A stretch of DNA of 64,000 nucleotides, from contig JBGAJA010000003.1 of assembly GCA_044225175.1 (NCBI GenBank), positions 69,428 through 133,427 on the forward strand, written 5' to 3'. The notes under the pieces are model-generated. The model was not told where the DNA came from and did not search any database. It saw only the letters and a program-made list of their open reading frames with translations. This DNA is from Candidatus Omnitrophota bacterium (GTDB lineage Bacteria; Omnitrophota; Gorgyraeia; Zapsychrales; Fredricksoniimonadaceae). Shown one piece after another: positions 18,594 through 40,179 of the stretch (position 1 is its first letter; each line of letters starts with the position of its first letter). The translations under genes were made by a program, and so were the position numbers.

Positions 18594-21098
18594 ATGGATA
18601 CAACCCGCAAAAATCATTATGTCCCTAAATGGTATCAGAAGCGATTCTTATCTTCGGAGAAGAGTGCTTTTCATTACCTGAATCTCAACCCATCTTTAAT
18701 TAAGATTTCTAATGGCACAAAGCTAAGCAAGGCTATTGACTGGCCGTGTAGTCCTAGACAATGTTTTTGGGAACAGGATCTTTATAACACGTCGTATTTC
18801 GGCTTTATTGATGATGAAATCGAAAGGCGTCTGTTTGGGGAAATTGATCGTACTGGGGCCAAAGCGATTGATGCCATGGCCGCTCAGGATATGAGGCGGA
18901 TGCACGCAACGTTCGAGGACTTCTTTGAGTATATTGATGGACAGAGAATCCGCACTCCCAAAGGGCTGGCATGGCTTAAATCTAAATATCCTAATCTGAC
19001 ACATAATCAATTGCTGATGGAAATGCAGCGTATACGGCAAATGCACTGCACCCTTTGGGTGGAGGCAGTTCGGGAAATAGTGTACGCGGACACTTCTGCT
19101 GTGAAGTTCCTTGTCTCGGACAATCCCGTTACTTTTTATAACCACGCTTGTAATCCTGATTCAGAAGAATGTCGTTACCCGGATGACCCAAGAATTGAGA
19201 TGAAAGCGACGCAGACCATTTTTCCTTTAGACAGCAATCGTTGCCTTATTTTGACCAATTTGGACTATGCTCGTAATCCAAATCTAGCGGATCCCAAGGC
19301 TTGGAGACCCAATGCTAATCCTTTTCGTCCGACTATGGGAAGAATTGATACAACGATTTGTGAGCGACACTTGCAAGATCACGAAGTGGTGGCTATCAAC
19401 TACATAATCAAAAGTAGGGCAAAGCAATACATAGCTGCGGAAAAAAGGGAATGGCTTGAGCCCGAGAAGATTTTTAAAGGCGATTGGAAAGTAGCGGGTA
19501 AGGTGTTATTGCCTCCAAAAGATGAGTTGCACCATTTCGGTGGAGAAATGTATGGTCAGTATGAAGATGGCCGATATTTCTATCGTGATGCGTATGGCAG
19601 AACTCATGGGGAAGCAGAACACTTAAAGAAAGATCCTCCAAAAGGCAAGATTGGTGCCAACCATCCTTGTACGTGCGGCAGTGGTAAGAAGTACAAGAAA
19701 TGTTGTCGTGATAAGGCTGAGGAAGATAGACCTTCTAGCTCCCAACGCAGTATTCGGGAGAGAAATTTGATGTTTTTCAGCATTGTCTCCAAGATTCTAG
19801 GACTTGAAGAAAATAATTGGACCGAAGTAAGAAGGCAACTTACTGACAAGAAGGTCGTTGATGTTCATAAGGCTGTTGCGGCATTGTGGCCTCCGGATAC
19901 GGACTTAATGGCTTTGCTACCGCGACCGGATGCCAAAGTTTCACGGGCTCTTTATTCAGGATTATTAGATCCCAGGGTCACATACAAAGATATTGCGGCA
20001 CTTTTGCCTTATGTGGACGAGATTTTGTTGATAAATCCATTTTTAAACCCAAATGTACTTCAGAAGAAATTTAATCCCATTGATAATCCTGCTCAATTTA
20101 GGTATGAAACGCTAAAGAATGTGCTTTTCTTAATGCCTTTGATGCCTTTGATCTCAGCCGGAAGGGTTAATGTGATTCCTGATCCCTTACATTTTAATCC
20201 TGCTTTAAGACAACAAATTTGGGCAGAAGCTGAAAAGCGTCGGGGAAAAGTTCAGATAGACGAAAAGATGATGAAATCAAATACAGAATTTGCAAAGGAT
20301 GACTTCAGGCGATTCATTTTTAGCGGTCCGGAAGATCGAATAAGGAGATTTGTTAAGAAAACAAATCCCGACATGACGGATGTAGAAATGGAGAAGTTTC
20401 TTGCTTATACACGGAAGCAGAACGAAGAAGATCCTCTCGTTTTGCTTGATCCAGCCACCGCTCAAGATGGTCAAGGCCAAGTCATGGTATTTCATCTAAA
20501 CCCTAATTTTGAATTAGGGATGTTTTTAGCTCAAGCGACAGGATCATTTATTGTCACATCCCATCCGTATAGATGGTCTGAGATTTGCTCATCAATAGAC
20601 TATTTCTATAGTGGTGCTCAATCAGCATGGGATCCTATCGCCAAATACATAATGGATTTTGAAATGGATTTTGCGCATTTCTCAGATCAAAGAGACTTTG
20701 TGTCTATGCTTAATGGCGGCGGGTTTCCAGACATGAAAAGCGCTTTAAGAAATGTCTGGAATATGGTGCAGACTGAAAGGCCCGTAGATGCTTCACAAAT
20801 AGACGGGCTTTTGAAAGATATTGACCATGGGCGAGAAAAAACGAAAGTGTCGATCGACAAACTAATGCAGCAGAAAAATGACGATCAGGCAGAATATTTG
20901 AGAGTAATAAAAACCAAAGCAAAGCTAAGTGCTAAGATTGCACCTGCTGGACATAGTACTAGTTTGGTGTATCGGCAGCTTTTGGCTCATGCGGGGCATG
21001 ATAAGTATCTAAAGGCTTTACCGTTGGCATTGTACATTGAACATGAAGAAATCAATGAAGATGGACTGGCTAAACAGCCAGAACAAGCGCCTTCTTAA
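18594..21098 (+). CDS. Large DUF4238-like N-terminal domain protein with an internal SEC-C metal-binding motif; candidate anti-phage/abortive-infection protein
   Basis: The N-terminus NHYVPKWYQKRF matches the HYVP..Y...F signature I associate with DUF4238. HPCTCGSGKKYKKCC at about aa 355 is a SEC-C motif. About 470 aa of unassigned C-terminal sequence follow. Confidence 0.55.
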   Translation: MDTTRKNHYVPKWYQKRFLSSEKSAFHYLNLNPSLIKISNGTKLSKAIDWPCSPRQCFWEQDLYNTSYFGFIDDEIERRLFGEIDRTGAKAIDAMAAQDMRRMHATFEDFFEYIDGQRIRTPKGLAWLKSKYPNLTHNQLLMEMQRIRQMHCTLWVEAVREIVYADTSAVKFLVSDNPVTFYNHACNPDSEECRYPDDPRIEMKATQTIFPLDSNRCLILTNLDYARNPNLADPKAWRPNANPFRPTMGRIDTTICERHLQDHEVVAINYIIKSRAKQYIAAEKREWLEPEKIFKGDWKVAGKVLLPPKDELHHFGGEMYGQYEDGRYFYRDAYGRTHGEAEHLKKDPPKGKIGANHPCTCGSGKKYKKCCRDKAEEDRPSSSQRSIRERNLMFFSIVSKILGLEENNWTEVRRQLTDKKVVDVHKAVAALWPPDTDLMALLPRPDAKVSRALYSGLLDPRVTYKDIAALLPYVDEILLINPFLNPNVLQKKFNPIDNPAQFRYETLKNVLFLMPLMPLISAGRVNVIPDPLHFNPALRQQIWAEAEKRRGKVQIDEKMMKSNTEFAKDDFRRFIFSGPEDRIRRFVKKTNPDMTDVEMEKFLAYTRKQNEEDPLVLLDPATAQDGQGQVMVFHLNPNFELGMFLAQATGSFIVTSHPYRWSEICSSIDYFYSGAQSAWDPIAKYIMDFEMDFAHFSDQRDFVSMLNGGGFPDMKSALRNVWNMVQTERPVDASQIDGLLKDIDHGREKTKVSIDKLMQQKNDDQAEYLRVIKTKAKLSAKIAPAGHSTSLVYRQLLAHAGHDKYLKALPLALYIEHEEINEDGLAKQPEQAPS

Positions 21099-23517: not shown

Positions 23518-24090
23518 ATGCCTAAGCTTTATATAATTGCTGGTCCTAATGGCGCCGGAAAAACTACATTTGCTAAAGAATTTCTTCCTTCCTATGCGAA
23601 ATGTTCCAATTTTGTCAATGCAGATTTGATTGCGTTAGGTCTTTCTCCTTTCAGTCCAGCTCAAGTCAGTATTAAGGCTGGTAAATTGTTACTCGGTGAA
23701 ATCGATAATTTCATAATCCGTAAGATGGATTTCGCCTTTGAAACAACTCTCGCTGGAAGAACATATATAAATTTAATCAAAGAAGTTAAATCTAAAGGAT
23801 ATTCTGTACACATTTTCTTTTTGTGGATACCCAGCGAGGATTTAGCTAAACAAAGAATAAAGCAACGGGTCAAACAAGGTGGGCATCATGTGCCTGATGC
23901 AGATGTCAAAAGAAGGTTACGCCGTAGTCTGAAGAATTTTTTTAATCACTATAGTCCCTTGGTTGATGGATGGGACATTTTTGATAATTCCGGATCAGAG
24001 CCAAAATTGGTGGTTAAATCTAATGAAAAAGGGTTTCAGATTATTGATAAAGAACTTTATCGATATTTGCTCAACAAGGAGAACATATGA
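23518..24090 (+). CDS. Zeta-toxin-like / AAA_33-type P-loop kinase-fold ATPase
   Basis: Walker A IIAGPNGAGKTTFA. The overall fold matches zeta-toxin/UDP-GlcNAc-kinase-like proteins. 190 aa. Confidence 0.6.
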   Translation: MPKLYIIAGPNGAGKTTFAKEFLPSYAKCSNFVNADLIALGLSPFSPAQVSIKAGKLLLGEIDNFIIRKMDFAFETTLAGRTYINLIKEVKSKGYSVHIFFLWIPSEDLAKQRIKQRVKQGGHHVPDADVKRRLRRSLKNFFNHYSPLVDGWDIFDNSGSEPKLVVKSNEKGFQIIDKELYRYLLNKENI

Positions 24091-29236: not shown

Positions 29237-29374
29237 GTTACAGGGCAGCAGCTCGGATTAGCCATTGTTCAACGCATCATCCGGCGTCATAATGGAAAAA
29301 TTTGGGCTGAAGGCCATATTGGTCAAGGAGCCAAATTTTCTTTTGCCTTGCCTATAAAAGTGGGGAGATACTGA
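29237..29374 (+). pseudogene. Orphan C-terminal fragment of a histidine kinase (HATPase_c G2-box region) with no start codon
   Basis: The frame opens just after the preceding gene and reads ...[44 protein letters not shown]. It is homologous to the C-termini of the histidine kinases at 57436..58194 and 36565..40179. There is no in-frame Met. Confidence 0.55.
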
Positions 29375-29393
29375 TAGGTTTATTTTATATTCT

Positions 29394-29422
29394 TTGACTG
29401 CCTTCTTAGATCAGAGTAGTAT
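29394..29422 (+). promoter_or_regulatory. Sigma70-like promoter TTGACT-17-TAGTAT upstream of blc
   Basis: Hexamers at 29394-29399 and 29417-29422 with a 17-nt spacer. Confidence 0.4.
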
Positions 29423-29451
29423 TCCTTAAGCTTCAATTAACAGGGAGGAAT

Positions 29452-29985
29452 ATGATGATCAAGACATCGGTAGTTTTCTTATTGGCGATATTACTTACCG
29501 GCTGTGCTCACACACGTCCTCCCTTAAAGACTGTTGATCAAGTAGACCTGAAACGTTATATGGGGCCTTGGTATGTGATCGCTTGTATTCCAACCTTTAT
29601 TGAAACTAAAGCTTACAATGCTATCGAAGAATATCAGCTGCTCCCAGATGGTACCATTGATACCGTTTTTACTTTTAATAATGGTAGTTTTGAAGGGCCC
29701 AAGAAACGATTTAATCCGCATGGGTTTGTTGTAGATAAGATTAATAACTCAACTTGGGGAATGCAGTTTATCTGGCCTTTCAAAGCAGAATTTCTTATTA
29801 CCTACCTCACGCCAGACTATAGCCAAACTATTATCGGCCGCAATAAACGTGATTATTTCTGGATTCAAGCCCGCACTCCTCAAATTTCAGATGATGATTA
29901 TCAAAGTTTGCTTATGATGTTGAAGGCTCAAGGATATGACATTACTAAGGTTCGTAAGGTTCCTCAGCATTGGCCCAATAAGTAA
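29452..29985 (+). CDS. blc: Bacterial lipocalin (outer-membrane lipoprotein Blc)
   Basis: Lipobox LLTGC; lipocalin SCR1 YMGPWYVIA; C-terminal DYFWIQARTPQISDDDY, similar to E. coli Blc. Confidence 0.75.
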   Translation: MMIKTSVVFLLAILLTGCAHTRPPLKTVDQVDLKRYMGPWYVIACIPTFIETKAYNAIEEYQLLPDGTIDTVFTFNNGSFEGPKKRFNPHGFVVDKINNSTWGMQFIWPFKAEFLITYLTPDYSQTIIGRNKRDYFWIQARTPQISDDDYQSLLMMLKAQGYDITKVRKVPQHWPNK

Positions 29986-30021
29986 TAAGTTTGCATTAGG
30001 AAATTCGGAGTCCACAAAAGA

Positions 30022-30612
30022 ATGACACTCTACAAAGTGATTTATATTCTTTTGTTAACAGTGATCCTGTGGATAGGAAACCTTGAATTATCCTATGCGT
30101 CAAATACTATTGAATTTGGACCTAAAGAAACAAAAATCAATGGCTCAATCAAATATTCTGTGGTGGGGAAATACCAAGCGTCTTTTGATCATTTTAAAGG
30201 CAAGATTGCCATTGATGAGAAATCTTACACTGTACAATCCGTTGAATTAGAGATTCAAGTTTCAAGTATTCGTTCGAATTGCAGTTGGTGTGATAAAATC
30301 GTTTGTTCCAAAAGATTGTTATACACAGAGAAATATCCCGAAATCATATTTAAAAGCAATGCCATTATAAAAGACGGATCTGGTTATCATGTCCGAGGTG
30401 TATTAAAGATGCATGGCGTCGAAAAATCTATGACCTTTCCTTTTAAGGCTAACATCATCGAAGATCATGGTCAGAAGTTTCTCGATTTATCCGGCAATTG
30501 GGAGATTTACCGTAAAGATTTCGGAATCATTTGGAATGCCCTACTAGATCAAGGCGGTGTCCTTGTTGGGAATAATGTTAATGTTCAGTGGGCGATAAGG
30601 AGGGCTTTATGA
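30022..30612 (+). CDS. YceI-like periplasmic (polyisoprenoid-binding) family protein
   Basis: Signal peptide. The length and beta-rich pattern, with GSGYHVRGVLKMHGVEKSMTFPF, resemble YceI-like domains. Confidence 0.45.
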   Translation: MTLYKVIYILLLTVILWIGNLELSYASNTIEFGPKETKINGSIKYSVVGKYQASFDHFKGKIAIDEKSYTVQSVELEIQVSSIRSNCSWCDKIVCSKRLLYTEKYPEIIFKSNAIIKDGSGYHVRGVLKMHGVEKSMTFPFKANIIEDHGQKFLDLSGNWEIYRKDFGIIWNALLDQGGVLVGNNVNVQWAIRRAL

Positions 30613-30968
30613 GCGCAGTATCAATTGTAATTTTAAGCAGCTTAATTTTATGCTCTTCTGTCTCGTATGCCCAGAATATGCCTGTTAAGAAATTATCACG
30701 AGGATTTGTCAATATTGTGACTGCACCCATTGAGATTCCTAAACAAGCTCGCGCCTATTGGATTAAAGGGGCACAAAAGACTCCGCACATCTTGGCGTGG
30801 ATTGGCTGTGGTGTGGTATGGGGAGGAGTGCAAGTAATTAAAAGAACAGGCTCTGGAATATGGGATGTGATTAGTTTTCCATTCTCTAAACCTGCAAATT
30901 ATGAACCGTTATTAAAGCCTAATTTCGTTTTTCAAGAATGGCCTAGAAATCCTAATAGTGGGCGTTAA
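30608..30968 (+). CDS. Secreted small protein resembling the exosortase-associated TIGR04073 family
   Basis: Motif KLSRGFVNIVTAPIEIPKQA after a signal peptide. SD AAGGAGG 6 nt before ATG 30608. Confidence 0.45.
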
Positions 30969-30974
30969 TTTAAA

Positions 30975-32990
30975 ATGAAAACTAAGAAAATCATCGTATT
31001 AGGTGCTACAGGTTACGTGGGAGGAAGACTTGTTGCTAAGCTGCTTGAAGAAGGATATCAAGTTAGAGCAACAGGGCGCTCTAAGGAGAAATTAAAAAGC
31101 AGATTCTGGGCTGATCATCCGCAAGTCGAATTATTTGATGCTGATGTTCAAAACTTGGATTCCTTGCGTAAGGCTCTTAAAGACATGGATATTGCCTACT
31201 ACCTTGTTCATTCCATGAATCCACAGAGTTCTGATTTCGAAGAAGCAGATCGACTCGCTGCGAACAACATGATTAAAATCTCCCAAGAATGTAACGTTAA
31301 AAGAATTATTTATTTGGGAGGCTTAGGTGAAGATAACCCACAATTAAGCAAACATTTAAAATCCCGCCATGAAGTTTGCGAAATACTAAACTCTGGTCCT
31401 GTTCCAGTTACAACGTTAAGAGCAGCCATGATTATTGGTTCTGGTAGTGCTTCTTTTGAAATTTTAAGATATCTAGTTGAACGTCTTCCAATCATGATTA
31501 CCCCTCGCTGGGTCAACACCCCCAATCAACCGATTGGCATTCGAAACGTCATAGAGTATCTTTGTGGCTGCGCGCAAAAAGATGAAACATCAGGGCAAAC
31601 GTACGATATTGGTGGTAAAGAAATTCTTTCGTATTTGGAATTGATGAAGATTTATGCGGACGTTGCGGGTTTAGCCCCAAGAATCTTTATTCAAGTACCC
31701 ATCTTAACCCCTCGATTAAGTTCTCTATGGATTCATTTGGTAACACCCGTGCCCAGCTATATCGCACGACCTTTAGCTGAAGGATTAAGAAATCCAGTCA
31801 TTTGTAAAGATCTTCGTATCAGAGAAATTATTCCTCAAGATTTATTGGATTGCAAAGAGGCGATAACACGAGCCTTACATCTTGTTCATCTTAATGATGT
31901 TAAAACGTACTGGGCGGATGCAGGAAAGGTCCCTCAAATTGCTATAGCGCAAAGGGGAGATCCCAACTGGGCAGGAGGAACGCTCTTACAGGATAAAAGA
32001 ACGCGAATTGTCAAAGCTTCTAAAGAAAGAATATGGGAGGTGATTTCTCATATTGGTGGTGAAACAGGTTGGTATCATGGAACGTGGCTATGGGGGCTTC
32101 GAGGTTCTCTTGATCGACTCGTGGGTGGTGTAGGTTCTTCCCGAGGACGAAGAAATGCGGTAGAAATAGCCGTGGGTGATGTACTCGATTTTTGGCGAGT
32201 GATCGGTGTAAAAAATAATGAGTCCTTAACCCTTGCTGCAGAAATGAAGGTTCCAGGAATAGCTACTTTAGATTTTCAGATCAAAGAAATTGATGCTACG
32301 ACTTGCGAGCTTACTCAACATGCCCGTTTTAGACCCAGAGGATTATTTGGTTTAGTGTATTGGTATTGCTTGGTTCCACTTCACGAATATATCTTTGGGG
32401 GAATGATTAAGAAGGTAGCTGTTCTTTCCACCAAAAAGATACTCGTTATTATTTTCTTAACAGCTTTTTTAAGTATGTCTCCGGCTTGGGCTTATAAAAT
32501 TGGTCCGGTAGAATTTAACGAGAAATATAATAGAGATTCGAACGCATTGTCTTTAAGAGGAGCTGGGCTTAAGAAATTCTTAGGAATACAAGTTGTGGCA
32601 GCAGCGCTTTATATGCCTGAGAATATTTCATCAGCAGACGCTCTGTCTGATTGTCCCAAACGTCTGGAAGTTGTCTATCTTCAGAATATTCCCAAGCAAG
32701 AGCTCCAACGAGCAACGGTTAAAGGTATTCGTAGCAATGTAAGCAAAAATGAATATGGTATTCTGGAACCAAAGATCAATCTTATTAATAATGCTTACAC
32801 CGACGTGCGAAAAGGGGATAGGATTTCAATTGCTTATATTCCATCAAAAGGTTTACAAATTACTGTTAATAGCGATGATAAAGGGTTTGTTGAAGGTCCT
32901 GAGATCGCCCGTGCATTTTTTGCTATTTGGTTAGGTGAACATCCGGTAGATCCTGTAATTAAAGATCTTCTCTTGGGAGGAAAGAAATGA
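30975..32990 (+). CDS. Composite ORF: NAD(P)-binding SDR-type domain plus DUF2867, fused in frame to a signal-peptide-bearing chalcone-isomerase-like (CHI-like) domain
   Basis: N-terminus IIVLGATGYVGGRLV (Rossmann fold). DUF2867-like segment GWYHGTWLWGLRGSLDRLVGGVGSSRGRR ... HEYIFGGM. This is followed directly by MIKKVAVLSTKKILVIIFLTAFLSMSPAWA (signal-peptide-like) and a CHI-like domain. Internal Met at 32403. Confidence 0.55.
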   Translation: MKTKKIIVLGATGYVGGRLVAKLLEEGYQVRATGRSKEKLKSRFWADHPQVELFDADVQNLDSLRKALKDMDIAYYLVHSMNPQSSDFEEADRLAANNMIKISQECNVKRIIYLGGLGEDNPQLSKHLKSRHEVCEILNSGPVPVTTLRAAMIIGSGSASFEILRYLVERLPIMITPRWVNTPNQPIGIRNVIEYLCGCAQKDETSGQTYDIGGKEILSYLELMKIYADVAGLAPRIFIQVPILTPRLSSLWIHLVTPVPSYIARPLAEGLRNPVICKDLRIREIIPQDLLDCKEAITRALHLVHLNDVKTYWADAGKVPQIAIAQRGDPNWAGGTLLQDKRTRIVKASKERIWEVISHIGGETGWYHGTWLWGLRGSLDRLVGGVGSSRGRRNAVEIAVGDVLDFWRVIGVKNNESLTLAAEMKVPGIATLDFQIKEIDATTCELTQHARFRPRGLFGLVYWYCLVPLHEYIFGGMIKKVAVLSTKKILVIIFLTAFLSMSPAWAYKIGPVEFNEKYNRDSNALSLRGAGLKKFLGIQVVAAALYMPENISSADALSDCPKRLEVVYLQNIPKQELQRATVKGIRSNVSKNEYGILEPKINLINNAYTDVRKGDRISIAYIPSKGLQITVNSDDKGFVEGPEIARAFFAIWLGEHPVDPVIKDLLLGGKK

Positions 32991-33538
32991 GTCAAATGTT
33001 TAAGGCAAGAGACATTGCGCTTTTATTGTTCTCCATTATGGTCATTTATTTCTTGGCGCCATCCTTAGATCGCAATCAAGGCATTTATGTTAGTACGATG
33101 TTTGCCATTATTAACATTTGTTCTGCTCGTCCCCTCTGGGATAAACCCCATCGTATCAAATATTTGAGTTATGTATTTGTATCAGTGGTCACCTATTATA
33201 TTTTATTTAATGATGAGCCATGGGGTATGATTTTTCACGGCGGTTTGTTTGAGAGTTCTCCTTGGCCTTTGATTGTTTGCTCTCTACTCATGACCTTCAA
33301 TGGGTGGTTATTATTTAATAATTGGCGCCAACGGCGTTTATATGCTTTGATCACATTGGGCATCCAAATTCCAATTGCCATTTTTATCGGCAGCCAGTAT
33401 TTGCAAGAGTCATTCACCGGTATGTCTCACGGGCTAAAATTCGTTGAGCACTATTCAGGATCCTGGCAAGTTTGGCAATTTGAATGGATGTTAACATATT
33501 ATCTTCCTATATATGCACTGAGTCGTCTCAAAGCATAA
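32987..33538 (+). CDS. Membrane protein, hypothetical
   Basis: ATGA overlap with the upstream gene; 5-6 hydrophobic helices. Confidence 0.45.
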   Translation: MSQMFKARDIALLLFSIMVIYFLAPSLDRNQGIYVSTMFAIINICSARPLWDKPHRIKYLSYVFVSVVTYYILFNDEPWGMIFHGGLFESSPWPLIVCSLLMTFNGWLLFNNWRQRRLYALITLGIQIPIAIFIGSQYLQESFTGMSHGLKFVEHYSGSWQVWQFEWMLTYYLPIYALSRLKA

Positions 33539-33668
33539 AGTCCCACCAGTGCAAAACTAAGCGTTTTTTCAATTACTTTTATAAATTACTTGAATAATGG
33601 ATTAAGTTTTGCCAATATGACTCGTTTTCAATCTACAATTTTTTACAAAATAACTAAAAGGAACTGCC

Positions 33669-36401
33669 ATTAAAGACTATATTTCTCTGACTCTCAAGGA
33701 AGATGTACGTTTTCTAACCACACTTTTAGGAGACAACATCCGCGAACAGGAAGGTGAGGCTTTCTTTAATAAGATTGAAAGCATCCGCAAGCTTGCTATC
33801 CAAATCCGCGAAGGCGGCAACAACGATAAAATTGAGACTCAACGAAAGATGATTGATTCGTTGTCGCTGGAGGAGGCTTACAAAGTTGCCCGCGCATTTA
33901 GTATTTATTTCCAGCTGGTCAATATTGCGGAGGAGCGTCAGCGTATCCGCCGTCTGCGTGAATACGCCAAAGACCAATCCAGCCTTCTTGACATGTCCCT
34001 TAGAAAAGTTTTTCATGATTTGAAAGAAATGAAAGTTCCAGCTAGTCGGATTACTGAACTTTTGGGAAACATGGAAATCGAACTTGTTCTAACCGCCCAT
34101 CCTACTGAAGCGAAACGCCATTCAGTGCTTGATCATCTATTACATATTGCTGTTGATTTAGCCAGGCTAGGAAACAATGATCTGCCTGTTATTGAACGCC
34201 ATCAAAATATCGAAAGTATCAAAGCTACGTTAGAGATTCTCTGGCAAACCTCTGAGATCCGCTTGCGTAAAGTGGAGGTGGTGGACGAAATCGATCATAC
34301 GTTGTTTTATTTCCGTCGAACTATTCTCAAACTTGTTAATAATGTTTACGATAAGGCTGTTGCTGAATTTCAGCATTCTTATGGGGATCGTGATCTTAAA
34401 TTTAAACCGTTTTTATATTTTGGTTCATGGGTGGGGGCTGACCGTGATGGGAATCCTAATGTTACGGCTGAAGTGACGAAAGAAGCAGTGCGCCGCCAGA
34501 AGGCATTGATACTGAATTTTTACCAGGATCGCATTCAAGGTTTTATCCGTGTGCTCAGTCAGTCGATGTCGCTTGCGAAAGCCAGTAAATCCCTATTAGA
34601 TTCCCTTAAAAAAGACGCACGTCTTTTGCCTGATGTGGCCAAGACGCTGGAAGGCTATGAATCCACCGAAATTTACCGCAAGAAGGTTACCTACATTCAT
34701 CGTAAACTGCATAATACATTAAGCGGCAAAGGTCATGGTTATCGATCAGCAGATGAATTTAAGGCTGATATTCTGCTCATGCAGCAAAGTCTTGAGAAAA
34801 ATAAAGGCGTATTGGCTAGTCAGTATTTTTTGAAATATTTGCTCGTGCAGGTGGAAACGTTTGGTTTTTATCTGGCGAGAATGGATTTTCGTGATCATAG
34901 CCGCAAGATTCGCCAGACGCTGGTAGAAATGTTTCCAGAAGACAATGCCATGGATAAAGATTTTCTTTTGAATCAAATTGAGCAGGAGAAAAAGAAAAGC
35001 CGCACTAAGATCTTTAGTCCTGAATCAAAAGACATTTTGGATCAATTGAAAGCCTTTCATGAAATTCAAAAGAGCGGCGGAAGTCAGTTAGTTAGCGATT
35101 ACATCATCAGCATGACGGAAAACACCAATGATATGCTGGCCCTATTTTATTTGGCCAAACGTCAGGGATTGATTAAGTTTAAAAATAAGAAAGTGGTAAA
35201 AGCTGATATCGGCATTGTTCCGTTATTTGAAGTCATTGATATTCTCGATAGTAGCCATGAAATTCTTGATGAGTTATTTTCAATTCCAATGTATCGCGAG
35301 TATCTCAAAGCGCGGGGCGATTTTCAGCAAGTGATGTTGGGATATTCTGACAGCAGTAAAGATGGTGGTTATCTTGCAGCCAACTGGAAGATTTATATCG
35401 CACAGAAAAAGCTTTTGGAGACAGCTCAAAAACATAACGTTAAACTGCAAATTTTTCATGGTAAGGGTGGCACCATTGATCGTGGAGGTGGCCAGTCTCA
35501 CAAAGCAATTTTGGCTCAGCCAGCCTCCGCCCCATTGGGACAAATTAAAATTACTGAACAGGGGGAGGTCATTTCACAAAAGTATTCCAATCCTGTTACC
35601 GCTGAACGAAATATAGAACAGCTAATAACCGCAGTCTTGTGGACAAATCTCGTCAGTCGTAAAGAAGTGAAAAATAATCCCCGCATTCCCGTTTGGGAAA
35701 AACGCCTGGAGGAGTTGTCGGCCTATTCTCTTAGTTTTTATCGACAGCTGATTGGAACTGAAGGATTTGTTGAGTTTTATAATCAGGCAACGCCGGTACA
35801 AATTTTAGAATTTGCAAAGATTGGTTCGCGTCCCGTCCGGCGAGGCAAGAGAGAATTAAAAGATCTAAGGGCTATTCCGTGGGTCTTCAGCTGGATTCAA
35901 TCCCGTTACATCATTTCATCCTGGTATGGAGTAGGATACGCTATTGAACGATTTATTGAAGAATATGGCCCAGAGGCTATTGAAGAATTACGTGAAATGT
36001 ACGCAGAGTGGCCGTATTTTAGATCGGTGATTGATAACGCGCAGATTTCGTTGGAAAAGACAGAAATGTATATTGCCGACCAGTATGGAGTGCTAGTCGA
36101 AGATAAAGTTATTCGAGACAACATCATGCAGCAGATCCATAGCGAATATAAGCGTTCAATTGAAAAGTTGATCGAGGTTTCACTTGATAAAAAATTGCTT
36201 GATTCTAAACCAATTCTTAAGAATTCAATCCGCCTGCGCAATCCGTATATCGACCCCTTACATTACATTCAAATCCGTTTCTTAAAAGAAATCCGTCAGA
36301 AAGAATTCTTGTCTCAGAACGAAAGTGTTCGCATCAAGATGTATGAAACACTCTTGCTCACGATGAATGGAATCGCAGCAGGGATGAAGAGTACAGGTTA
36401 G
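33669..36401 (+). CDS. ppc: Phosphoenolpyruvate carboxylase
   Basis: LAHPTEAKRHS, VGYSDSSKDGG and FHGKGGTIDRGGG motifs. The conserved N-terminus (LKEDVRFLTTLLGDNIREQEGEAFFNKIESIRKL) lies in frame upstream of the first ATG (33849). The likely start is ATT 33669 (SD AAAAGGA at 33656-33662) or CTG 33687. Confidence 0.85.
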   Translation: MKDYISLTLKEDVRFLTTLLGDNIREQEGEAFFNKIESIRKLAIQIREGGNNDKIETQRKMIDSLSLEEAYKVARAFSIYFQLVNIAEERQRIRRLREYAKDQSSLLDMSLRKVFHDLKEMKVPASRITELLGNMEIELVLTAHPTEAKRHSVLDHLLHIAVDLARLGNNDLPVIERHQNIESIKATLEILWQTSEIRLRKVEVVDEIDHTLFYFRRTILKLVNNVYDKAVAEFQHSYGDRDLKFKPFLYFGSWVGADRDGNPNVTAEVTKEAVRRQKALILNFYQDRIQGFIRVLSQSMSLAKASKSLLDSLKKDARLLPDVAKTLEGYESTEIYRKKVTYIHRKLHNTLSGKGHGYRSADEFKADILLMQQSLEKNKGVLASQYFLKYLLVQVETFGFYLARMDFRDHSRKIRQTLVEMFPEDNAMDKDFLLNQIEQEKKKSRTKIFSPESKDILDQLKAFHEIQKSGGSQLVSDYIISMTENTNDMLALFYLAKRQGLIKFKNKKVVKADIGIVPLFEVIDILDSSHEILDELFSIPMYREYLKARGDFQQVMLGYSDSSKDGGYLAANWKIYIAQKKLLETAQKHNVKLQIFHGKGGTIDRGGGQSHKAILAQPASAPLGQIKITEQGEVISQKYSNPVTAERNIEQLITAVLWTNLVSRKEVKNNPRIPVWEKRLEELSAYSLSFYRQLIGTEGFVEFYNQATPVQILEFAKIGSRPVRRGKRELKDLRAIPWVFSWIQSRYIISSWYGVGYAIERFIEEYGPEAIEELREMYAEWPYFRSVIDNAQISLEKTEMYIADQYGVLVEDKVIRDNIMQQIHSEYKRSIEKLIEVSLDKKLLDSKPILKNSIRLRNPYIDPLHYIQIRFLKEIRQKEFLSQNESVRIKMYETLLLTMNGIAAGMKSTG

Positions 36402-36564: not shown

Positions 36565-39500
36565 TTAAGATTTACTTGCTGTAAGACAAGGGAGGGTAAA
36601 AGAAAACACTGAACCTTTACCATATTCTGAAGTTACAATCATCTTGCCTCCATGCCGCTCTACGATTTTTCTACATATTGCTAAACCAATCCCAATCCCC
36701 GAGTATTCTTGGCCATGGAGGCGGTTGAAAATATCGAAGATTTTATTTAAATCTTCTGGCTTAATTCCTATTCCATTGTCTGTGATGGAAATAAGCCATT
36801 CTTGATCTTGTCGAACGGCAGAGACATTGATAAGAGGGGTCGTATTACTTTTATATTTTAAAGCATTACTGATCAAGTTTTGGAAAAGTTGTATAAGTTG
36901 GGTTTTATTGCCTAAAACTACCGGAAGTTTATCGAAGGTGATCTTAGCACCAGTTTTTTTGATCTTAATTTGTAGATTAGTTAGAACCTGCTTCAAGCAT
37001 TGTTTGCAATCAACTTCTTTTAAAGGGGTTTTTACCTGTTCAATTTGGCAGAATTCAAGCAATTTGCTGATAAGTTCCTGCATGTGCGAAACGCTTGAGT
37101 TAATGTGGCTTATAAATTCTTTGGCTTTCTCATCTAATACTTTACCTACATATTTCTTCTCCAAGAGTTGAAGATAAGAGGAGACCACATTCAGTGGTTC
37201 TTTAAGATCATGAGAGGCCATAAAAGCAAATTGTTCAAGATCGGTATTACTCCGTTTAAGCTCTACGGCATCATTTCGAAAGCGGTTGAGGGATTGCCTG
37301 TGCTTAGTCACATCTTCAATTCCAATCAAGATTAAAGCATCTTTACCCTGTTTTTGTTCTAATCGTGTCGCATTAAGCAGCATGATACGATGACCCAGGT
37401 TTTGAAAATTGTGCTCAATTTCATAATTATCAATTCTTTGCTTTTGTGGCAATATTTCTTCAAGTAGAGTGCGTAATTCTGCAATGTCCCACTGTCCATT
37501 TCCTAAATTGTAGAAACATTTGCCTTCTGTCTCTTTCTCTAAGACTTCAAACGTCTTATAGAAGGAATGGTTAGCGATTTTAACCCGTAGGTCTTTGTCT
37601 AAGACGACCAAGTTTTCTCTTGCTGTCTGTACCATAGCCCTACAAAAATCATTCATTTCTTGAAGATGCAAATTAGTACGTTTAATTCCTTCGATGTCAT
37701 TTAATGTAAGAATAGCTCCTTCAATCTTATTATCGGCAGTTTTATTAGGAAGCACCCGAAGCATAAACCACTGTCCATCTGAAGTCTGTATTTCTTGTTC
37801 TTTAACAATCACTTTATGGATAACATCAAGAAGGATGCGATTTAAGTTGATAGCTTTGATAGCATGTAAATCATTCAGTGGCCTATTCAATTCATTTGGA
37901 AGGAATTGAAGAATTTGAGAAGCAGCCTCATTAAAGCGACGGATCTTAAGATCGTTTCCGATCATGATGATTGGGATTTTAGTGCCGTTAAGCAAATTTG
38001 TTAAATCATTGTTAAGTAAGTTTATCTCCCTACTTTGGGTCTGAAGTTCTTCATTGATCGTCGTGAGTTCTTCATTGGCAGATTGAAGTTCTTCCTTGGA
38101 CGTTTCTAATTCTTCATTAGTGCTTTGCAGTTCTTCATTGCTGGATAGAATTTCTTCATTAGCTGCATCCTGCTGTTCAATGATGGATTGAAGATATTCT
38201 CGGGCAGCAGTCAAATCCCTTCTTAATTGGATAATTTCCTTTTTCTGTTCATTAGGAGTTTGATTTTTTTCTTGAGAAACAGGAGCTTCAATATCTACGG
38301 GTTTTGAGGCTTCAAACAAGATTAAGAAACAGCTTTCATTTGTTTCCGGTAATTTAACCGGAATGATCTCGAGATGGGCAACATGTTCTTTAGATCCATC
38401 TTTAAATTTTATATTAGGCCTATTAACTGTGACATGGGTTTCTTTGGCTTCTCGGATCGCTGTTCCAAGTTCCAATGCCAAGTTTTCTTTAGCCATTCTA
38501 AGAATATGAAAAACTGCTTCACCTGTGGGAGGCTCTAAATACAAATTAGTCTTTCCTCGAAACTGTAGAATCTCAAGATTTTCATTAATCAATACTCCAG
38601 AAGGGGAGTAACGCCCAACAATGATGCGATCAGCTTCTTTTTGGAAATCTGCAGTTGTAGGTACTCTTTGACTATTAGCAGGGGAAGAAAGAACGTAATT
38701 TTTTGTATTCTTATCCATATAAAAATACGTCTCAGGACGAAGAGCAATAAGCTTTTTAGTATAAATATTAAGTTTTTTATCCAGGACATTGAATAAATTG
38801 GAATGAATGCCTACTGTTTCTGAATTTCCCAACACCAGAAAACCATTCGGATTAAGAGCGTAATGAAAAGTTTTCAAGACTCTTTGCTGGAGAGGATTGC
38901 TTAAGTAAATTAATAAATTACGGCATGTGATAACATCCACTCTGGAAAAGGGCGGGTCAGCCATAACGTTTTGTTTGGCGAATATGCACATTTCTCTAAT
39001 GAATTTATTGATACGGTATCCCCCAGTCTCTTTTGTAAAAAAACGGCGAAGACGACTTTCTGATACCTCTGTTTCAATACTTTCGGTGTAAAGCCCCAAC
39101 CGGGCCTTTTCGATGCATTTAGGATCATTGATATCTGTTCCAAAAATTTGGATGGTTGGAGGGGAAGGTTTATGATCAAAGTATTCAATAAGTAGCATAG
39201 CCAGAGAATATGCTTCTTGACCTGTAGAGCAACCAGGTGCCCACATACGGATAATAGAAGGATTATTTTTTGTTATCTCAGGCAGAACTTTATTTTTGAT
39301 TGCTTCAAATATTTCAGGATCTCTAAAGAAGCTGGTCACATTAATCAGGAGATCATGATGAAGAAGTTCGATCTCTTGGTGATTATTTTCCATGTAAGTC
39401 AAATATTCTGCCAGGGTTTGCTTGGCATGAAGGGTCATACGCCGCATAATCCTGCGTTTGATAGTGGTGTCTTTATAATTGGTAAAGTCAATACCAGTGG

Positions 39501-40179
39501 TTGTTCGCAAAAGGGACAGGATTTTATGGAAGTCATTTTCTTGTTCTGGAATTCTAGAATCTTCATCAGCAGTAGCTTTATTGCATAGATAAGGATGACG
39601 GACAATGTTGACTAATTCACGTGCAATTTCTTCAGGAGGCATAATAAAATCGATGGAACCGCTTTCAACAGCATTGCGAGGCATCAGCTGATATTCCGCT
39701 GACTTTTCATTTTGAGCAAAAGTAATGCCACCCGATGCTTTGATCTCTGCTACTCCTACAGTGCCATCGGATCCTGTGCCTGAAAGAATGACACCAATAG
39801 CTCGGTTCTTTTGCTCTGCTAAAGATCGGAATAAAAGATTAATAGGTAAATGTGGGGCTTGGGAATCTCCCCGAGGAGACAGCTTAAAAATATCCCCATT
39901 CAGTTCTACATTAACATTAGGAGGAGTTACATAAACATGATTAGGTTCTATCGTCATGCCATTTTTTATTTCACTTACTGGAATGTTCGTTGTTTTCGAT
40001 AGAATACTGGTGAGTTGACTTGGAAAATTTGGAGCAAGGTGCTGAACAAACACGAAGGCCATTTGAGGGTCTTCAGGTATGTTTGCTAGGAACTTTGTAA
40101 ATGCCTCTAAACCGCCTGCTGAAGCACCGATACCAACTATGGGAAATATTCTTTTTAATTTATTCATGACAAATATCAA
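36565..40179 (-). CDS. CheB methylesterase-CheR methyltransferase-PAS-coiled-coil-histidine kinase fusion protein
   Basis: CheB motif PIVGIGASAGGLEAF; CheR AdoMet-binding motif (RMWAPGCSTGQEAYS); PAS segments; heptad-like NEEL repeats (SNEELQSTNEELETSKEELQSANEELTTINEELQ); HisKA ASHDLKEPLN; HATPase_c GIGIGLAICRKIVERHGG. Confidence 0.8.
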   Translation of the reverse strand: MIFVMNKLKRIFPIVGIGASAGGLEAFTKFLANIPEDPQMAFVFVQHLAPNFPSQLTSILSKTTNIPVSEIKNGMTIEPNHVYVTPPNVNVELNGDIFKLSPRGDSQAPHLPINLLFRSLAEQKNRAIGVILSGTGSDGTVGVAEIKASGGITFAQNEKSAEYQLMPRNAVESGSIDFIMPPEEIARELVNIVRHPYLCNKATADEDSRIPEQENDFHKILSLLRTTTGIDFTNYKDTTIKRRIMRRMTLHAKQTLAEYLTYMENNHQEIELLHHDLLINVTSFFRDPEIFEAIKNKVLPEITKNNPSIIRMWAPGCSTGQEAYSLAMLLIEYFDHKPSPPTIQIFGTDINDPKCIEKARLGLYTESIETEVSESRLRRFFTKETGGYRINKFIREMCIFAKQNVMADPPFSRVDVITCRNLLIYLSNPLQQRVLKTFHYALNPNGFLVLGNSETVGIHSNLFNVLDKKLNIYTKKLIALRPETYFYMDKNTKNYVLSSPANSQRVPTTADFQKEADRIIVGRYSPSGVLINENLEILQFRGKTNLYLEPPTGEAVFHILRMAKENLALELGTAIREAKETHVTVNRPNIKFKDGSKEHVAHLEIIPVKLPETNESCFLILFEASKPVDIEAPVSQEKNQTPNEQKKEIIQLRRDLTAAREYLQSIIEQQDAANEEILSSNEELQSTNEELETSKEELQSANEELTTINEELQTQSREINLLNNDLTNLLNGTKIPIIMIGNDLKIRRFNEAASQILQFLPNELNRPLNDLHAIKAINLNRILLDVIHKVIVKEQEIQTSDGQWFMLRVLPNKTADNKIEGAILTLNDIEGIKRTNLHLQEMNDFCRAMVQTARENLVVLDKDLRVKIANHSFYKTFEVLEKETEGKCFYNLGNGQWDIAELRTLLEEILPQKQRIDNYEIEHNFQNLGHRIMLLNATRLEQKQGKDALILIGIEDVTKHRQSLNRFRNDAVELKRSNTDLEQFAFMASHDLKEPLNVVSSYLQLLEKKYVGKVLDEKAKEFISHINSSVSHMQELISKLLEFCQIEQVKTPLKEVDCKQCLKQVLTNLQIKIKKTGAKITFDKLPVVLGNKTQLIQLFQNLISNALKYKSNTTPLINVSAVRQDQEWLISITDNGIGIKPEDLNKIFDIFNRLHGQEYSGIGIGLAICRKIVERHGGKMIVTSEYGKGSVFSFTLPCLTASKS

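Follow-up and report, generated by a model that had tools for sequence, protein, structure and literature searches.

Deletion-Made Fusion of an SDR/DUF2867 Reductase to an Exported Chalcone Isomerase-Fold Protein in an Omnitrophota Bacterium

Introduction

How a cytoplasmic-type reductase and a normally exported protein come to share one reading frame, and how such a frame is expressed, are the questions raised by an open reading frame (ORF) of a Candidatus Omnitrophota bacterium. The DNA analysed, hereafter the window, is a stretch of 64,000 nucleotides (assembly GCA_044225175.1, contig JBGAJA010000003.1, positions 69,428 to 133,427 of the forward strand). The ORF joins a YbjT-like protein, of the short-chain dehydrogenase/reductase (SDR) and DUF2867 type, to a domain of chalcone isomerase (CHI) fold, and the former signal peptide of the latter now lies inside the chain. 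The fusion is genuine and derived: it is present in two independent assemblies, and both halves as well as the linker are under purifying selection. Comparison with relatives points to a deletion as its origin. Synthesis of a single precursor, with export of the CHI part by its old signal peptide, is the reading favoured here.

Architecture of the Fused ORF

The ORF (30975-32990, + strand; Table 1) forms a single frame without interruption, and neither the ORF listing nor a direct reading of the DNA reveals a stop between the domains, in agreement with the initial annotation, which had described one frame holding SDR, DUF2867, and CHI-like parts. Pfam membership was judged by the gathering score. 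The profiles NAD_binding_10, NmrA, and Epimerase match residues 3-147, the first with 65.3 bits (cut-off 27.2) and the second with 51.1 bits (cut-off 27), which identifies a Rossmann NAD(P)-binding domain; its GxxGxxG motif reads G10-ATG-YVG. The region in which the YxxxK of SDRs is expected corresponds to the family-conserved segment LSKHLKSRHEV, with no obvious YxxxK in the alignment. The best solved relatives of this part are the NDUFA9 / 39-kDa subunits of complex I, which are membrane-peripheral. The DUF2867 profile follows, matched over its full length (1-142) with 107.3 bits (cut-off 27). No N-terminal export signal is seen in the sequence of the SDR part, which upholds the cytoplasmic character first proposed for it. 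In the C-terminal part, Chalcone_3 is matched at residues 508-668 (106.8 bits, cut-off 27, E 1.7e-30; profile positions 3-165 of 165). A frame of 671 codons holding two domain matches near 1e-30 is therefore not due to chance.

The AlphaFold2 (AF2) model of the CHI domain (pLDDT 90.8, pTM 0.86) displays the open-faced β-sandwich of the CHI fold. Foldseek comparison with the Protein Data Bank (PDB) returns CHI, CHI-like protein (CHIL), fatty-acid-binding protein (FAP), and Aim18p as top matches (TM-score 0.66-0.80, E down to 3e-9, probability 1.0). The predicted fold is the same as that of plant and fungal CHI, CHIL, the fatty-acid-binding FAP1/FAP3 of Arabidopsis, and yeast Aim18p, whereas sequence identity to these proteins is 12-20% and the bacterial domain is shorter (165 aa) and predicted to be exported. 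Its only sequence match in the PDB is AtFAP3 (4DOL), at a weak E of 0.054 and with a gap at the Arg position of the FAP "FRE". Of the earlier description "CHI-like (fatty-acid-binding-type)", the fold is borne out by Pfam, model, and Foldseek, while the fatty-acid-binding label is unproven and serves as a lead only.

Approximately 120 close SDR/DUF2867 relatives (485-515 aa, 57-95% identity) cover the first 71-75% of the fused protein. The stand-alone YbjT-like proteins (NAD_binding_10/NmrA plus PF11066, ~490-510 aa) correspond to window residues 1-487, and share with the window the neighbourhood YceI - TIGR04073 - SDR/DUF2867. All those inspected possess a GGM-IKK(I/V)AxL(S/A).. tail running 11-25 residues beyond GGM before the stop, and not the typical terminus at ...HEYIFGGM that had been assumed initially. 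In the stand-alone YbjT-like proteins, the stop is placed 11-17 residues past the motif. The window frame, in contrast, enters the signal peptide and the CHI domain and carries 184 extra residues. Since the tail is conserved in the unfused relatives, Met477 and the segment MIKKVAVLSTK belong to the reductase, and not to the n-region of a CHI signal peptide.

On the CHI side, none of the 12 full-length relatives read (13 were found) is fused: each is a separate protein of 186-205 aa that starts with its own Met and bears a short signal peptide. Their N-termini follow the pattern M-K(-K)-hydrophobic...(P/S)(A/S)WA↓(Y/F)K(V/I)G, the ..WA ending being found in 7 of the 12 and other small-residue endings in the remainder. 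These exported Chalcone_3 proteins (PF16036), paired with a ~190-aa membrane protein, are 48-77% identical to residues 488-671. Their mature N-terminus (Y/F)K(V/I)G and the xWA motif at the cleavage site recur in the window, as does the partner gene downstream. The stand-alone proteins differ by having their own ATG and an N-terminal signal peptide, whereas the window protein has lost this Met and carries its signal peptide internally.

The segment MIKKVAVLSTKKILVIIFLTAFLSMSPAWA↓YKIGP, which had drawn attention to this locus, is indeed present at 32403-32507. Its h-region, ILVIIFLTAFLSM (32439-32477, residues 489-501; 13 aa, mean Kyte-Doolittle hydropathy 2.84), is the sole strongly hydrophobic segment of the 671-aa protein and lies between DUF2867 and Chalcone_3. 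It is preceded by the n-region K487-K488 and followed by the c-region S-P-A-W-A, with a predicted signal peptidase I (SPase I) site AWA↓YK between 32492 and 32493 (A504-W-A506↓Y). The linker hence displays the charged n-region, the h-region of 7-15 residues, and the small residues at -3/-1 typical of Sec/SPase I substrates, while it would be N-terminal only if translation started at Met477. The "textbook signal peptide" of the initial annotation is correct as to all these features, though the location is internal and the n-region had been wrongly assigned.

Origin by Deletion

The closest relative having both genes, unfused, is the genome L002 (78% identity for the SDR protein, 74-77% for CHI). 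Its gene order is YceI - TIGR04073 - SDR/DUF2867 - DUF1475 - DUF1295 - CHI - 190-aa membrane protein - Pyr_excise - CMAS - amine oxidase - DUF1365 - CMAS. The L002 SDR gene ends in "...tct act aaa gga gaa TAG" and its CHI gene starts with "ATG aaa ata ata att...", while the DNA at the window junction reads "...tcc acc aaa / aag ata ctc...". Compared to L002, the window lacks the end of the SDR gene with its stop codon, both genes that follow it, and the CHI ATG, together ~1.2 kb. A tblastn search with the L002 proteins finds none of DUF1475, DUF1295, CMAS, amine oxidase, and DUF1365 in the 64-kb window. In 14 further relatives (L004-L015, L058, L059) the SDR gene ends in a stop, and the CHI gene, if present, is located elsewhere in the cluster; adjacent SDR and CHI genes were not found in any relative examined.

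Because two genes separate SDR from CHI in L002 and the genes are adjacent in no relative, the simple loss of a stop codon, as initially supposed, is rejected. By this comparison, the fusion is a derived state, left by a deletion and not by point loss of the stop. The deletion would have begun just before the stop of the SDR/DUF2867 gene and ended just past the start codon of the gene for the exported CHI-fold protein, at an AAA microhomology; it would have removed the stop, the start, and the genes between, with the frame kept by chance. We infer a deletion in one step, with a loss of ~1.2 kb if the ancestor resembled L002. The event would be evolutionarily recent, and its setting would be an oxidative/UV-stress, lipid-related gene cluster of an Omnitrophota-like bacterium (PVC group). 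To note, the YceI gene of L002 (L002:91-465) bears an in-frame internal deletion of ~72 residues as compared to the window YceI (1-89 joined to 162-196), a second case of deletion-type remodelling in the same cluster.

A Second Genome and the Selection Acting on the Fusion

The genome L001 (GCA_020049755.1, a 4.4-kb contig of an independent metagenome-assembled genome, MAG) is collinear with window positions 29253-33081 at 92% nucleotide identity. It exhibits the identical in-frame junction, together with an in-frame 3-nt deletion of its own within the h-region. The same in-frame junction in an independent genome 8% divergent rules out a sequencing or assembly artefact. The fusion is hence real, and a sequence correction introducing a stop near 32410, the outcome that would have restored two conventional genes, is now unlikely. 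Among the orthologues compared, the genes are separate in all unfused relatives and fused in the same manner in L001.

L001 displays one striking difference: TGA in place of TGG (Trp505) in the AWA motif (L001:3830-3832, equivalent to window 32487-32489). In its gene calls, the SDR protein ends at the TGA (503 aa) and CHI is called truncated. With this TGA, the reductase would finish in a hydrophobic stretch, leaving the CHI domain with no start. The TGA may reflect an error or a polymorphism, or may have arisen as a recent nonsense mutation. Its recoding as Trp is rejected as unlikely, since the ORF terminates, in the window and L001 alike, in a TGA that overlaps the start codon of the gene that follows.

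Between the window and L001, dN/dS amounts to 0.04 for the SDR part, 0.03 for DUF2867, 0.10 for the tail and signal peptide, and 0.13 for the CHI domain (24 synonymous and 12 non-synonymous changes), with 0.06-0.09 in neighbouring genes. When replacements are polarised with L002 and L004 as outgroups, the CHI part shows no L001-specific excess (5 vs 3 outside the shifted h-region, with 5 vs 2 in SDR). The low ratios and the absence of such an excess indicate that, over most or all of the period since the two genomes diverged, both carrying the fusion, the CHI frame was translated and required. Scans of genome contigs and metagenome contigs, as well as protein databases, yielded no further member of the fused lineage; the contig scans returned unfused SDR relatives or distant CHI relatives (25-34%) alone.

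Related Fusions of SDR/DUF2867 Proteins

When the 671-aa protein is scored against 1.84 billion representative proteins, none of the 150 best matches extends past residue ~506, and the SDR/DUF2867 plus CHI architecture is therefore absent from them. Other C-terminal partners of SDR/DUF2867 do exist: PNPOx, SRPBCC, TspO (an integral membrane protein), transmembrane (TM) segments, and Lipocalin_2. P0179 (654 aa), P0143 (625 aa), and P0135 (676 aa) exemplify the partners TspO/MBR, additional TM segments, and a PNPOx-like domain; such fusions hint that the enzyme may work at the membrane on tetrapyrrole-, flavin-, or lipid-type ligands.

A search with the lipocalin fusion P0243 gathers more than 120 clusters of SDR/DUF2867(-SRPBCC)-lipocalin proteins (71-92% identity, 640-830 aa). 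All 11 that were inspected harbor a signal-peptide-like linker directly before the lipocalin, formed of an Arg-rich n-region, an h-region WAAAVALVAATTL, and the ending Q-P-A-x-A-Q-A↓Q. A-x-A precedes the lipocalin domain in 10 of them, and no Met suited to an internal start is conserved. These proteins (e.g., P0243, P0283, P0398; named "lipocalin/YbjT (DUF2867 family)/SRPBCC" by JGI) resemble the window protein in having a cytoplasmic-type SDR/DUF2867 first, followed by an internal Arg/Lys-rich n-region, a ~13-residue h-region, A-x-A, and a small lipid-binding domain that is normally exported. They differ by the presence of Lipocalin_2 instead of the CHI fold, by their high-GC lineage, and by another gene neighbourhood (viewed for one gene). 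The signal-like linker after SDR/DUF2867 is thus common to both, while the window has no C-terminal Lipocalin_2 and does not share descent with these fusions: its closest SDR relatives are all unfused, so that the CHI fusion arose independently, and the different lineage and neighbourhood likewise indicate an independent origin of the lipocalin fusion. The lipocalin family is moreover large and old, whereas the CHI fusion is known from two genomes. Within it, SRPBCC has apparently been lost wholly or partly, and independently, in several members, as seen from P0283/P0289 (~800 aa) compared to P0243, P0284, P0314, P0327, and P0296 (643-751 aa); these would be in-frame deletions with differing breakpoints, in which the linker and lipocalin are always kept.

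The view that such arrangements are unusual was therefore overstated, as SDR/DUF2867 has repeatedly been fused to exported or membrane partners. The CHI-fold partner is new; the design of SDR/DUF2867, linker, and exported lipid-binding domain is recurrent, stably inherited, and already in databases. No paper describing this architecture was found, and a literature search on DUF2867, YbjT, and internal signal peptides returned nothing functional.

A Probable Single Precursor with an Internal Signal Peptide

We consider it rather likely that the fusion, made by a deletion and kept under selection, yields a single translated precursor, that the old signal peptide exports its CHI part, and that SPase I probably separates the two parts. 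All ribosomes translating the reductase would read on into the old signal peptide (KK, the 13-residue h-region, A-W-A), which would act as an internal signal sequence in an N-in/C-out orientation. The NAD(P)-binding enzyme would stay at the cytoplasmic face, with the CHI-fold domain being threaded via Sec into the periplasm. SPase I would then cut after A506, freeing the mature CHI-fold protein and leaving the reductase with a short hydrophobic C-terminal tail. According to the Sec/SPase I rules, a short h-region and small residues at -3/-1 predict a cleaved signal and not a stable anchor; as the h-region has the length of that of a signal peptide and Ala is kept at -3/-1, this cleavage is probable. 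The fusion may be near-neutral, or mildly useful through a fixed 1:1 dosage and membrane tethering, which would account for its retention. The topology put forward initially, with the reductase in the cytoplasm and the binding domain in the periplasm, is plausible, and the lipocalin fusions provide a widespread natural analogue.

Several points weigh against this scenario. Export and SPase cleavage are deduced from sequence rules only, and the signal sequence emerges after ~490 residues of folded cytoplasmic enzyme. The TGA of L001, if real, would cut the CHI part from translation in that genome and point to a decay of the fusion, which in the genome and metagenome scans is carried by two genomes only. 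Finally, the size and single-step nature of the deletion rest on one outgroup, in a cluster of fluid gene order.

A first alternative, which we regard as unlikely, is internal initiation. The CHI precursor would be made from ATG 32403 (Met477) as MIKKVAVLSTKKILVIIFLTAFLSMSPAWA↓YK...; its signal peptide would span 30 residues and take its n-region from the end of the reductase, and the fusion made by read-through would be tolerated as a by-product. This ATG is the only canonical in-frame start upstream of the h-region; the peptide starting there has a positive n-region and is acceptable as a signal peptide, and the surrounding mRNA is A/U-rich. It is also preceded by GGGGGA, with a predicted anti-Shine-Dalgarno (anti-SD) pairing of -8.4 kcal/mol. 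However, Met477 and the G-run are the Gly-Gly-Met codons of the family, and the unfused L006 and L002 reach -8.4 and -9.3 kcal/mol, respectively. As the G-run is equally strong or stronger in unfused relatives, nothing has evolved here for internal initiation, and a ribosome-binding site arisen within the fused lineage is rejected. In all cases the G-run is 0-1 nt from the ATG, against 4-7 nt in the strong-SD genes of the window; about half of the window genes have a weak SD or none, so that spacing may not matter here. The site would, furthermore, be occluded by ribosomes elongating from the 476 upstream codons, and a consensus scan for an internal promoter is not above chance (19 found, 13.9 ± 4.2 expected). 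Finally, the analogous lipocalin fusions are conserved despite the lack of a conserved Met before the linker. The internal Met that the initial annotation offered as an alternative thus retains its standing as the sole canonical in-frame start before the h-region, and is weakened by its family-wide context and by its spacing.

Cleavage might also fail to occur, the old signal peptide being a permanent signal-anchor that joins the reductase and the periplasmic lipid-binding domain in one bitopic, trans-membrane unit. The absence of a stop, the selection, and the lipocalin analogy would serve this proposal equally well. The fusions of SDR/DUF2867 to TspO and TM segments suggest that membrane attachment is useful, and the membrane-peripheral NDUFA9 subunits among its nearest solved relatives are in keeping with this. 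A 13-residue h-region between KK and S-P is, on the contrary, short for a stable TM helix and typical of cleaved signals, and the retention of A-x-A in the window and in nearly all lipocalin fusions inspected would be unexpected without cleavage, making an uncleaved protein quite improbable. Decay or artefact, namely a neutral deletion scar in a vanishing cluster with CHI as a (near-)pseudogene, or an assembly or sequencing error, might be read from the loss of DUF1475, DUF1295, and all cyclopropane fatty acid (CFA) synthase-like genes of L002/L011 from the window, the L001 TGA within the signal peptide, the in-frame deletion in the L002 YceI, and the restriction to two genomes, but is contradicted by the junction kept in frame in two independent assemblies, the low dN/dS of the CHI domain and linker, the lack of an L001-specific replacement excess in CHI relative to SDR, and the intact, translationally coupled downstream gene, and it is very improbable.

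If the single precursor is indeed exported and cleaved, a further step can be proposed tentatively, and with some reservation: the fusion may represent a natural bacterial two-compartment polyprotein, which SPase I splits into a membrane-tethered cytoplasmic reductase and a free periplasmic lipid-binding protein, the same principle applying to the lipocalin family. Polyproteins resolved by SPase are exemplified by the structural polyproteins of flaviviruses and hepatitis C virus (HCV) and by von Heijne-type Lep constructs, which are eukaryotic-viral or artificial. In these systems, an internal segment directs downstream translocation and is cut on the trans side; the window protein shares with them an internal hydrophobic segment with small -3/-1 residues, cleavage being here a prediction. 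A literature search found no natural bacterial SPase-resolved polyprotein.

Gene Neighbourhood and Other Features of the Window

Table 1. Coordinates of the fused ORF, its parts, and the neighbouring genes in the window.
Feature	Position	Strand	Basis or remark
Fused ORF, 671 aa + TGA stop	30975..32990	+	ORF listing, DNA reading, Pfam
SDR / NmrA-like Rossmann part, residues 1-331	30975..31967	+	Pfam
DUF2867 domain (PF11066), residues 332-477	31968..32405	+	Pfam, E 1e-30
Conserved C-terminal tail of the SDR/DUF2867 family, M477-IKKVAVLSTK-487	32403..32435	+	Alignments of relatives; includes ATG 32403
Deletion junction AAA/AAG, breakpoint ambiguous within the A-run	32433..32438	+	Comparison with L001 and L002
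Former CHI signal peptide, now internal, K488-A506, own Met lost	32436..32492	+	Alignment with stand-alone homologues
Mature CHI-fold domain (Pfam Chalcone_3, PF16036), residues 507-671	32493..32987	+	Pfam, structure model, dN/dS 0.13
Blc-type lipocalin lipoprotein, lipobox LLTGC	29452..29985	+	Pfam, L001 comparison; first gene of the block collinear with L001
YceI-like exported protein	30022..30612	+	Pfam, relatives; part of the YceI - TIGR04073 - SDR/DUF2867 core
TIGR04073-family small exported protein ("small119"; exosortase system-associated)	30609..30968	+	Directly upstream of SDR/DUF2867
183-aa hydrophobic protein, no family match	32987..33538	+	Conserved downstream partner of the CHI-like gene

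Of the 14 relatives examined, 13 have the TIGR04073 gene between YceI and SDR/DUF2867, and the remaining one (L010) is cut at the contig start. The start of the TIGR04073 gene overlaps the end of YceI (region 30588-30968), and the triad YceI - TIGR04073 - SDR/DUF2867 is conserved, without a described function. Downstream, the ATG of the 183-aa gene overlaps the TGA of the fused ORF (ATGA) and is preceded by the SD GGGAGGA at 5 nt spacing; this partner gene follows the CHI-like gene in L001, L002, L003, and L004.

The relatives of the locus, annotated as Omnitrophota or "uncultured Planctomycetales" MAGs, carry CFA-synthase-like genes, flavin amine oxidase, DUF1365, DUF1295, UvdE, pyrimidine-dimer glycosylase, peroxidases, SOUL, and PAS-GerE regulators. 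In L002, L011, and L059, the SDR gene is combined with two CFA-synthase-like genes, flavin amine oxidase, DUF1365, DUF1295, lipocalin, UV-repair genes, and peroxidases. This gene set resembles the singlet-oxygen / sigmaE-ChrR lipid-modification regulons (PMC5507510, PMC11832516). Those compared by gene content are R. sphaeroides RSP_1087-1091, P. syringae PSPTO_1116-1121, and S. maltophilia smlt2367-2375. Unlike them, the locus relatives exhibit no pair of extracytoplasmic function (ECF) sigma factor and ChrR, PAS-GerE regulators being seen instead, and the window is devoid of CFA-synthase-like genes.

Other features of the window deserve mention. The phosphoenolpyruvate (PEP) carboxylase ORF read from ATG 33849 misses ~53 N-terminal profile positions, and its canonical N-terminus (..LKEDVRFLTTLLGDNIREQEGEAFFNKIESIRKLA..) is encoded upstream in frame (33654-33850). 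No ATG, GTG, or TTG is present in frame between the preceding stop and this N-terminus; translation may start at a non-canonical codon, either ATT 33669 (AAGGA at 33658-33662, 6 nt spacing) or CTG 33687. A 1199-aa chain on the opposite strand (36565-40167, -) combines CheB methylesterase, CheR methyltransferase, PAS domains, and a histidine kinase. Upstream of the fused ORF, genes for a zeta-toxin/AAA_33-like 190-aa protein (23518-24090, +) and an 834-aa protein with DUF4238 and a SEC-C motif (18594-21098, +) may mark a mobile or defence-related stretch.

Implications

For annotation, ORFs of this kind should be neither split automatically at an internal Met nor "corrected" as frameshifts. The locus also constitutes a natural experiment, in which a cleavable signal peptide has been placed ~490 residues inside a protein; should its product be exported and cleaved, the locus would provide a natural, and rare, case of a bacterial polyprotein that signal peptidase resolves.

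As a "Rosetta stone", the CHI fusion, together with the independent lipocalin, SRPBCC, and TspO fusions, ties the uncharacterised DUF2867/YbjT reductases to small exported or membrane proteins binding lipids or tetrapyrroles, the partners coming from the same stress gene clusters. This link gives several domains of unknown function a functional hypothesis that can be tested. If the two-compartment polyprotein holds true, 1:1 stoichiometry and co-localisation at one membrane patch would be fixed. The fusions would then reflect a conserved trans-envelope pathway, in which the DUF2867 reductase would act on a membrane lipid or isoprenoid passed to or from periplasmic carriers (CHI-fold, lipocalin, YceI) during photo-oxidative stress. 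The main value of the fusion lies in the link that it draws between DUF2867 and envelope lipid carriers, and in the test case that it offers for internal signal peptides.

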